Sequence record: Z35638.1
Origin: Escherichia phage phiX174
DNA length: 3,164 nucleotides
Strand: one strand, 5' to 3'
Below, one piece after another: positions 2,267 through 2,724 of this stretch. The position numbers and the translations under genes are program-made. Numbering within the stretch: position 1 is the first letter of the stretch; each line of letters begins with the position of its first letter. The notes beneath the pieces were generated by a model. The model saw only the letters and a program-made list of their open reading frames with translations. It made no database searches and was not told the origin of the DNA.

Positions 2267-2294
2267 TTGACAATTAATCATCGGCTCGTATAAT
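2267..2294 (+). promoter_or_regulatory. tac hybrid promoter: -35 TTGACA (2267-2272), 16-bp spacer, -10 TATAAT (2289-2294); SD AGGA at 2328-2331; BamHI GGATCC at 2336-2341
   Basis: Consensus hexamers with 16-bp spacer read directly; the surrounding actccccatccccctgttgacaattaatcatcggctcgtataatg matches the commercial tac promoter cassette as recalled. Confidence 0.9.
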
Positions 2295-2336
2295 GTGTGG
2301 AATTGTGAGCGGATAACAATTTCACACAGGAAACAG
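2283..2336 (+). repeat. Direct repeat copy 2 (tac promoter -10/lacO/SD segment), 54 bp
   Basis: ggctcgtatAAtgtgtggaattgtgagcggataacaatttcacacaggaaacag; differs from copy 1 only at the two -10 bases. Confidence 0.85.
2301..2321. promoter_or_regulatory. lac operator O1, second copy, within the tac promoter transcript start region
   Basis: Exact aattgtgagcggataacaatt seen directly. Confidence 0.9.
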
Positions 2337-2448
2337 GATCCTGCCGTTTTGGATTTAACCGAAGATGATTTCGATTTTCTGACGAGTAACAAAGTTTGGA
2401 TTGCTACTGACCGCTCTCGTGCTCGTCGCTGCGTTGAGGCTTGCGTTT

Positions 2449-2724
2449 ATGGTACGCTGGACTTTGTGGGATACGCTAGCTTTCCTGCTCCTGTTGAGTT
2501 TATTGCTGCCAAGCTTGCTGATCATGTTCATCCCGTCGACATTCAAACGGCCGGTGAGCTCATGGAAGGCGCTGAATTTACGGAAAACATTATTAATGGC
2601 CTCGAGCGTCCGGTTAAAGCCGCTGAACTGCAGCCGGTTACCTTGCGTGTACGCGCAGGAAACACTGACGTTCTTACTGACGCAGAAGAAAACGTGCGTC
2701 AAAAATTACGTGCAGAAGGAGTGA
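2449..2724 (+). CDS. E: phiX174 lysis protein E (91 aa), a single-gene lysis protein that inhibits MraY; placed downstream of tac/lacO
   Basis: Translation from ATG 2449: [91 protein letters not shown], with the hydrophobic N-terminal transmembrane segment and basic C-terminus typical of E. It lies in the +1 frame inside D as in the phage, with GAGG at 2436-2439 as SD. The track ORF 2401..2724 starts at an upstream TTG; the true start is the internal ATG. Confidence 0.93.
2475..2642. other. Cluster of engineered restriction sites inside E/D: NheI 2475-2480, HindIII 2511-2516, BclI 2519-2524, SalI 2535-2540, EagI 2548-2553, SacI 2556-2561, XhoI 2601-2606, PstI 2628-2633, BstEII 2636-2642
   Basis: Nine palindromic 6-7 bp sites within 168 bp seen directly; each is synonymous in the E frame and coincides with an amino-acid change in the D frame relative to recalled native phiX174. 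Matching vector sites (HindIII, polylinker PstI/SalI/SacI) are absent elsewhere by manual scan. Confidence 0.75.

Follow-up and report, generated by a model that had tools for sequence, protein, structure and literature searches.

Results

Organization of the plasmid backbone

The window, that is, the whole 3164-bp stretch of DNA that was analysed, is a complete circle in which the last and first bases join as the pUC19 numbering junction (…CCCTTTCGTC/TCGCGCGTTTCGG…, reverse strand). Most of the circle is a pUC-type backbone with the following features.

201-1061, forward strand: bla, the TEM-116 allele typical of pUC vectors, serving as the selection marker (ORF list, Pfam and record comparison)
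1200-1900: ColE1/pMB1-type replication origin, rop absent (record comparison)
2003-2095, forward strand: lacI 3' stub, encoding LacI residues 331-360 (the tetramerisation helix) and the stop codon TGA at 2093-2095 (translation; phmmer against PDB LacI chains)
2144-2173, forward strand: lac promoter of the pUC backbone, TTTACA, 18-nt spacer, TATGTT (promoter scan, 9/12)
2180-2200, forward strand: lacO1, copy 1 (exact 21-mer match)
2218-2241, forward strand: lacZ' leader ORF MTMITPS, 7 codons (translation)

Without the insert, the backbone comprises 2629 bp and is exactly pUC19 minus the polylinker. Across the 2239 bp of positions 1-2239, the plasmid shows 99.9-100% identity to pUC-derived records with blaTEM-116, and bla, with 286 aa, is the largest ORF anywhere in the circle. 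The parts of a pUC-type vector are all present and shared with the pUC series (pUC9/13/19 orientation), namely, bla TEM-116, the ColE1-type pMB1 origin without rop, the lacI stub, Plac with lacO, and lacZ-alpha. The differences from that series are the deletion of the polylinker, with an EcoRI cassette in its place, and a few bases of the old compiled type at 1379 and 1624-1625.

These bases bear on the provenance of the record. Compared with directly sequenced pUC DNA (MT108922), three bases of the backbone differ: position 1379 is C, the pBR322-type base, as opposed to T, the RNA II copy-up base, in MT108922, and positions 1623-1627 read CATTG as opposed to CTATG in sequenced pUC-derived DNA, that is, AT rather than TA at 1624-1625. 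The RNA II copy-up mutation (T at 1379 on this strand) is therefore absent from the sequence as written. The backbone is 100% identical only to two compiled vector records of the 1990s, U36911 and U36912. Given this match and the old bases at 1379 and 1624-1625, the record was probably compiled on paper or in silico from an old pUC sequence, a point that users of the plasmid should bear in mind when relying on the deposited backbone. Furthermore, with the pBR322-type base in the written origin, the sequence does not reveal the copy number.

The EcoRI cassette and its tandem promoters

The cassette that replaces the polylinker, together with the gene fusion at its downstream end, contains the following features.

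2240-2245: EcoRI site, left end of the cassette, inside AAGCT/GAATTC/AGCTT (restriction map, sequence)
2246-2341, forward strand: standard tac block, from a HindIII remnant to BamHI, with promoter, lacO and lacZ Shine-Dalgarno sequence (shared with vector records)
2267-2294, forward strand: tac promoter, TTGACA, 16-nt spacer, TATAAT (promoter scan, 12/12 consensus)
2301-2321, forward strand: lacO1, copy 2, beginning at the expected tac transcription start (exact 21-mer match)
2341-2763, forward strand: phiX174 nt 460-882, with D from codon 24/25 to codon 152, the whole of E and the opening 11-12 codons of J (megablast, annotation, base comparison)
2343-2729, forward strand: truncated scaffolding gene D', without start codon and with 14 amino-acid changes (Pfam gpD; frame comparison)
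2436-2439, forward strand: native E Shine-Dalgarno sequence GAGG, 9 nt upstream of the ATG, same as in the phage (sequence)
2449-2724, forward strand: lysis gene E, 91 codons, ATG to TGA, encoding wild-type protein of the Q89 natural variant (ORF, PDB, Pfam, phage comparison)
2475-2642: engineered block of nine restriction sites in E codons 9-65 (restriction map and phage comparison)
2729-3019, forward strand: J'-lacZ-alpha translational fusion, with 11 J codons joined in frame via EcoRI to the pUC alpha-peptide (translation compared with the pUC19 alpha-peptide)
2764-2769: EcoRI site, right end of the cassette (restriction map)

The left junction, AAGCT/GAATTC/AGCTT at 2235-2250, resembles a HindIII site that was filled in and given an EcoRI linker; it forms the TGA at 2239-2241, so that the vector lacZ' leader ends after 7 codons. 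The tac block that follows, of about 97 bp, recurs, 99-100% identical, in vector-derived but otherwise unrelated plasmid records of PLSDB and is thus a standard portable promoter cassette. Compared with the known tac cassette (a trp -35/lacUV5 -10 hybrid on a HindIII-BamHI fragment), the hexamers, the 16-bp spacing, the lacO1 at the start and the lacZ Shine-Dalgarno sequence are the same, and nothing notable differs. In the plasmid, however, there is no ATG between 2301 and 2364 and hence none right after the lacZ Shine-Dalgarno sequence of the block, so that translation relies on the site of E itself. The only ATG between the tac start and E belongs to a short upstream ORF of five codons (MISIF, then stop; 2365-2382), which comes with the natural D sequence and is out of frame with D.

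The region scanned contains 4 promoter-like sites, compared with 0.8 expected from shuffled sequences, and the 21-bp lacO1 (AATTGTGAGCGGATAACAATT) occurs exactly twice, with 0 occurrences expected by chance. The vector lac promoter and its lacO lie 120 bp upstream, in the same orientation as tac. The sequence-only reading had placed lac and tac promoters, each with a lacO, at 2144-2173 and 2267-2294, and both the promoter scan and the exact operator matches agree with these coordinates. It had also delimited an inducible lysis module at 2267-2724; the coordinates hold, but the true extent is larger, comprising the portable EcoRI cassette at 2240-2769 and the J'-lacZ-alpha fusion downstream. 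According to the promoter/terminator scan, E is not followed by an intrinsic terminator.

The same reading held that the plasmid carries only a 3' stub of lacI, and this is indeed the case: the phmmer match to the PDB LacI chains covers only residues 331-360 of 360. No source of LacI in cis, whether lacI or lacIq, was found, and the complete circle contains no other ORF of sufficient size. Given that only residues 331-360 are encoded and that the circle is complete, the plasmid has no functional lacI. Unlike in self-contained tac vectors, which carry lacI or lacIq in cis, repression must come from the host, and tight control requires a lacIq host or a second plasmid with lacI. In practical terms, the plasmid is one to be kept in a lacIq host. 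Titration of LacI, leaky lysis and selection for E-inactivating or slyD host mutants are plausible predictions for such an arrangement. Leakage of tac of up to ~2% has been reported in one study, where the cloning of E required a weakened T5 promoter (PMC10467106), and another states that ~500 E molecules per cell are toxic and that attempts to clone untagged E behind a leaky rhamnose promoter failed (PMC5405515).

Remnants of D and J in the phiX174 insert

The phage-derived insert is flanked by BamHI and EcoRI sites and is 95.0% identical to phiX174 over 423 nt (megablast, INPHARED), with E as its sole complete phage gene. Translation of the D frame matches Pfam gpD (E=3e-70, profile positions 23-141 of 141), but the frame is entered at about codon 24 and contains no in-frame ATG after the transcription start; the D' product is presumably not expressed. 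For the plasmid, the D-frame product is meaningless.

At the other end of the insert, the J start ATG lies at 2729 and is preceded by the native Shine-Dalgarno sequence AAGGAG at 2716-2721. The in-frame fusion of J' to lacZ-alpha could be either a deliberate reporter of expression or a 1-in-3 accident of frame. In either case, as predicted from the reading frame, induction with IPTG should also yield alpha-complementation through J'-lacZ-alpha.

Gene E encodes the natural protein

E of phiX174 is a 91-aa membrane protein that blocks MraY and lyses growing E. coli, and the host protein SlyD stabilises it. The assignment of 2449-2724 to this gene, made at first from the letters of the sequence, was borne out by the ORF, Pfam, PDB and phage comparisons alike. 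The encoded protein matches the Pfam family Microvir_lysis (PF04517; E=1.8e-22; score 79 bits, cutoff 25) and chain B, 'Lysis protein E', of PDB 8g02 (E=1.8e-53), and it shares 100% identity with the E protein of phiX174 isolate AP100 (EF380009). The alignment to NC_001422, which had been set beforehand as the test of this assignment, upheld it, with 90 of the 91 residues identical. The one difference, R89Q, results from G833A, a natural polymorphism shared with EF380009 that, judged by identical alignment scores, appears to be present in many other phiX174 records. At E codons 41 (2569-2571) and 89 (2713-2715), the residues are L and Q here and R and R in PDB 8g02; the L41R difference is a property of the PDB construct.

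Residues 1-35, which include the N-terminal hydrophobic transmembrane segment, are the same as in the phage, with P21 kept as CCA. The protein retains R3, L19 and P21; R3 and L19 are the positions of the SlyD-bypass 'Epos' alleles, and with both residues present, SlyD dependence of this E is expected. Inhibition of MraY and the requirement for SlyD have been described for E (Bernhardt et al. 2001; Roof & Young 1995; both cited through PMC10229422 and PMC5405515), and the lytic activity and the contact with MraY have been mapped to the N-terminal region of the protein (PMC5405515). For the E encoded here, MraY inhibition, SlyD dependence and lysis would follow from the identity of the protein, taken together with this literature.

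Two further ORFs overlap the gene. The 107-aa, TTG-started ORF at 2401-2724 was rejected as a separate gene, since it only prolongs the reading frame of E mechanically in the upstream direction, and a 115-aa antisense ORF at 2355-2702 was given no weight.

Could the module nevertheless be dead or attenuated, with the deposited plasmid representing a surviving clone in which a disabling change relieved the toxicity of E without a lacI gene at hand? The cloning difficulties reported for untagged E behind leaky promoters and the need for a weakened promoter elsewhere (both noted above) point in this direction, as do the two operators per plasmid copy in the absence of lacI. Moreover, if the record is a paper assembly, undocumented attenuating mutations in the physical plasmid would stay invisible. 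What is written, however, shows no such change: the encoded E does not differ from a natural phiX174 E protein, on which ground a disabled E allele was rejected, the tac promoter matches the consensus at 12 of 12 positions, both operators are perfect, and E keeps its native Shine-Dalgarno sequence and start codon. Nor is the predicted accessibility of the start region lowered by the nucleotide changes described below, the mean unpaired probability being 0.36 in the plasmid compared with 0.30 in the wild type. We thus regard a dead module as very improbable.

Silent recoding of E creates nine unique restriction sites

The identification of the gene as phiX174 E from the sequence alone was right as far as the protein goes but missed the recoding, so that the insert is not a plain cloned phage fragment. 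Base-by-base comparison with EF380009 reveals 21 substitutions in the insert, all of them within E codons 9-63 and all synonymous in E; it is these designed silent changes that bring the DNA identity of the phiX174 segment down to only 95%. They touch 15 E codons, including three complete recodings of serine from TCN to AGC. In the D frame, by contrast, 14 of the 15 altered codons are non-synonymous. In either of the two frames, about 24% of single substitutions made at random are synonymous, and when random bases were placed at the same 21 positions, E remained unchanged in 27 of 1,000,000 trials.

Together, the substitutions give rise to nine restriction sites, none of which occurs elsewhere in the plasmid.

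2475: NheI
2511: HindIII
2519: BclI
2535: SalI
2548: EagI
2556: SacI
2601: XhoI
2628: PstI
2636: BstEII, completed by T-to-G at 2637

Wild-type phiX174 460-882 contains none of the eight 6-cutter sites (all nine minus BstEII). Every substitution lies in a restriction site or completes a Ser codon beside one; the single off-site change, G>C at 2634, serves only to preserve Ser62 once PstI had been introduced. Codons 9-38, that is, the transmembrane domain and the residues just beyond it, hold seven of the nine sites. The uniqueness of HindIII, SalI, PstI and SacI depends on the removal of the vector polylinker.

With nine unique sites spread over codons 9-65, short synthetic duplexes can be swapped into the gene, mainly in the transmembrane domain and the following linker. 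The pattern is the signature of a cassette-mutagenesis allele, a purpose to which the placement of the sites points, and users of the plasmid should accordingly treat its E as a restriction-site-tagged allele. The amino-acid changes in D' are a consequence of the recoding of E. Judging by its lack of a start codon and its 14 substitutions, the D frame is sacrificed for this recoding.

A simpler purpose would be that of a plain lysis tool, for the production of ghosts, programmed release of cell content or containment, in which case the sites would be by-products of assembly from synthetic oligonucleotides. Ghost production and cell lysis are common applications of inducible E cassettes, and the flanking EcoRI sites allow this cassette to be transferred as one fragment, both of which would suit such a tool. 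Yet nine sites in 168 bp, seven of them in codons 9-38, the region to which lytic activity has been assigned (PMC5405515), and the removal of a polylinker, which keeps HindIII, SalI, PstI and SacI unique, represent more effort than a lysis tool needs. We therefore consider this explanation unlikely, with the reservation that use for lysis and use for mutagenesis are compatible rather than mutually exclusive.

Occurrence of the recoded sequence in databases

The recoded sequence was found in none of the collections searched. Exact scans for a recoded 40-mer gave 0 hits in IMG/VR and 0 in 185,579 GTDB species genomes. In INPHARED, there was no matching record, the 547 matching phage records including natural microviruses only, at no more than 95% identity, and PLSDB likewise held no matching record, only phiX174 control genomes and vectors with the tac block. 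The absence of the recoded sequence from INPHARED, PLSDB, IMG/VR and the GTDB species genomes fits a laboratory construct. A search of the full-text literature retrieved general papers on E and bacterial ghosts, but not the original publication or laboratory of the plasmid.

These searches also bear on whether the insert might be a natural phiX174-like sequence, or phiX174 sequencing-control DNA misassembled with a vector. phiX174 is a common contaminant of assemblies, and several 5386-bp 'plasmids' in PLSDB are phiX174. However, the changes in the insert are silent in the E frame only and build palindromic 6-bp sites, the insert has BamHI and EcoRI boundaries and a commercial-type tac block upstream, and no natural microvirus exceeds 95% identity among the 547 matching phage records. 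The frame-specific silent changes that create restriction sites rule out both natural origin and misassembly, to which we attach practically no probability. A natural lysis system would be found in isolates and would show substitutions fitting selection on both overlapping genes; here, the substitutions are silent in E and damaging in D.

Among the PLSDB records matching the D-E-J region of phiX174, six 5386-bp 'plasmids' (NZ_AP024892, NZ_AP024868, NZ_AP026443, NZ_AP028091, NZ_AP024880 and NZ_OR345925), assigned to Vibrio, Cellulomonas, Edwardsiella and E. coli, have exactly the length of the phiX174 genome and are almost certainly sequencing-control contamination.

Discussion

Here, we interpret the window as an engineered, complete 3164-bp pUC-type plasmid with a tac cassette carrying phiX174 E recoded for cassette mutagenesis, a reading to which we assign a probability of about 0.9 and which no feature of the sequence contradicts. 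The plasmid is a man-made laboratory tool of a known kind and neither a natural nor a new system. Indeed, inducible cloned E has been used since the 1980s in the genetics of E and for the production of bacterial ghosts. The sequence-only reading had likewise taken the locus to be engineered rather than a novel natural system, and the pUC circle, the tac block and the recoded E all speak in favour of this view. The window deserves the label of an engineered vector with a toxic lysis gene and is not a source for mining natural biology; the plasmid contributes no new understanding of phage lysis.

Compared with E in the phage (NC_001422 nt 568-843), the plasmid gene encodes the same protein (that of AP100), keeps the native ribosome-binding site and remains in the +1 frame of D, as in the annotated phage overlap. 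It differs in the 21 designed synonymous substitutions with their nine sites and in being accompanied by a truncated, mutated and startless D; furthermore, it is placed under tac and lac promoters, whereas the phage gene is under the D promoter. With other inducible cloned-E plasmids, which rely on lambda pR/cI857, lac, tac, T5, rhamnose or arabinose control, it shares the single-gene lysis module, the repressible promoter and the multicopy replicon. Unlike those plasmids, it combines the absence of a repressor gene with two tandem lacO-controlled promoters, a recoded E in cassette format and J'-lacZ-alpha downstream.

From these features and established knowledge, the working of the module can be sketched. 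In a host with enough LacI, both operators would be occupied and transcription would be off. IPTG would release LacI, and the tac transcript would begin near 2301. E would then be translated from its native, weak ribosome-binding site, and the protein would enter the inner membrane, where, stabilised by host SlyD, it would inhibit MraY and hence lipid I synthesis, so that growing cells would lyse at septation. The same transcript would be translated into J'-lacZ-alpha, which could report expression by alpha-complementation.

It is conceivable, but in our estimate a long shot, that translation or mRNA structure of E, and hence the timing of lysis, is measurably affected by the 21 synonymous changes or by the lack of D-frame translation upstream. 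If so, the plasmid would serve, by accident, as a test of the way in which codon choice and an overlapping frame tune a single-gene lysis protein. The shift in predicted start-site accessibility (0.36 compared with 0.30, see above) is only slight. As a separate observation on the same transcript, RNA folding predicts a long-range stem around the Shine-Dalgarno sequence and ATG of E, pairing approximately 2389-2399 with 2457-2467. The stem is predicted in the wild-type and recoded sequences alike and may be related to the naturally low translation of E.
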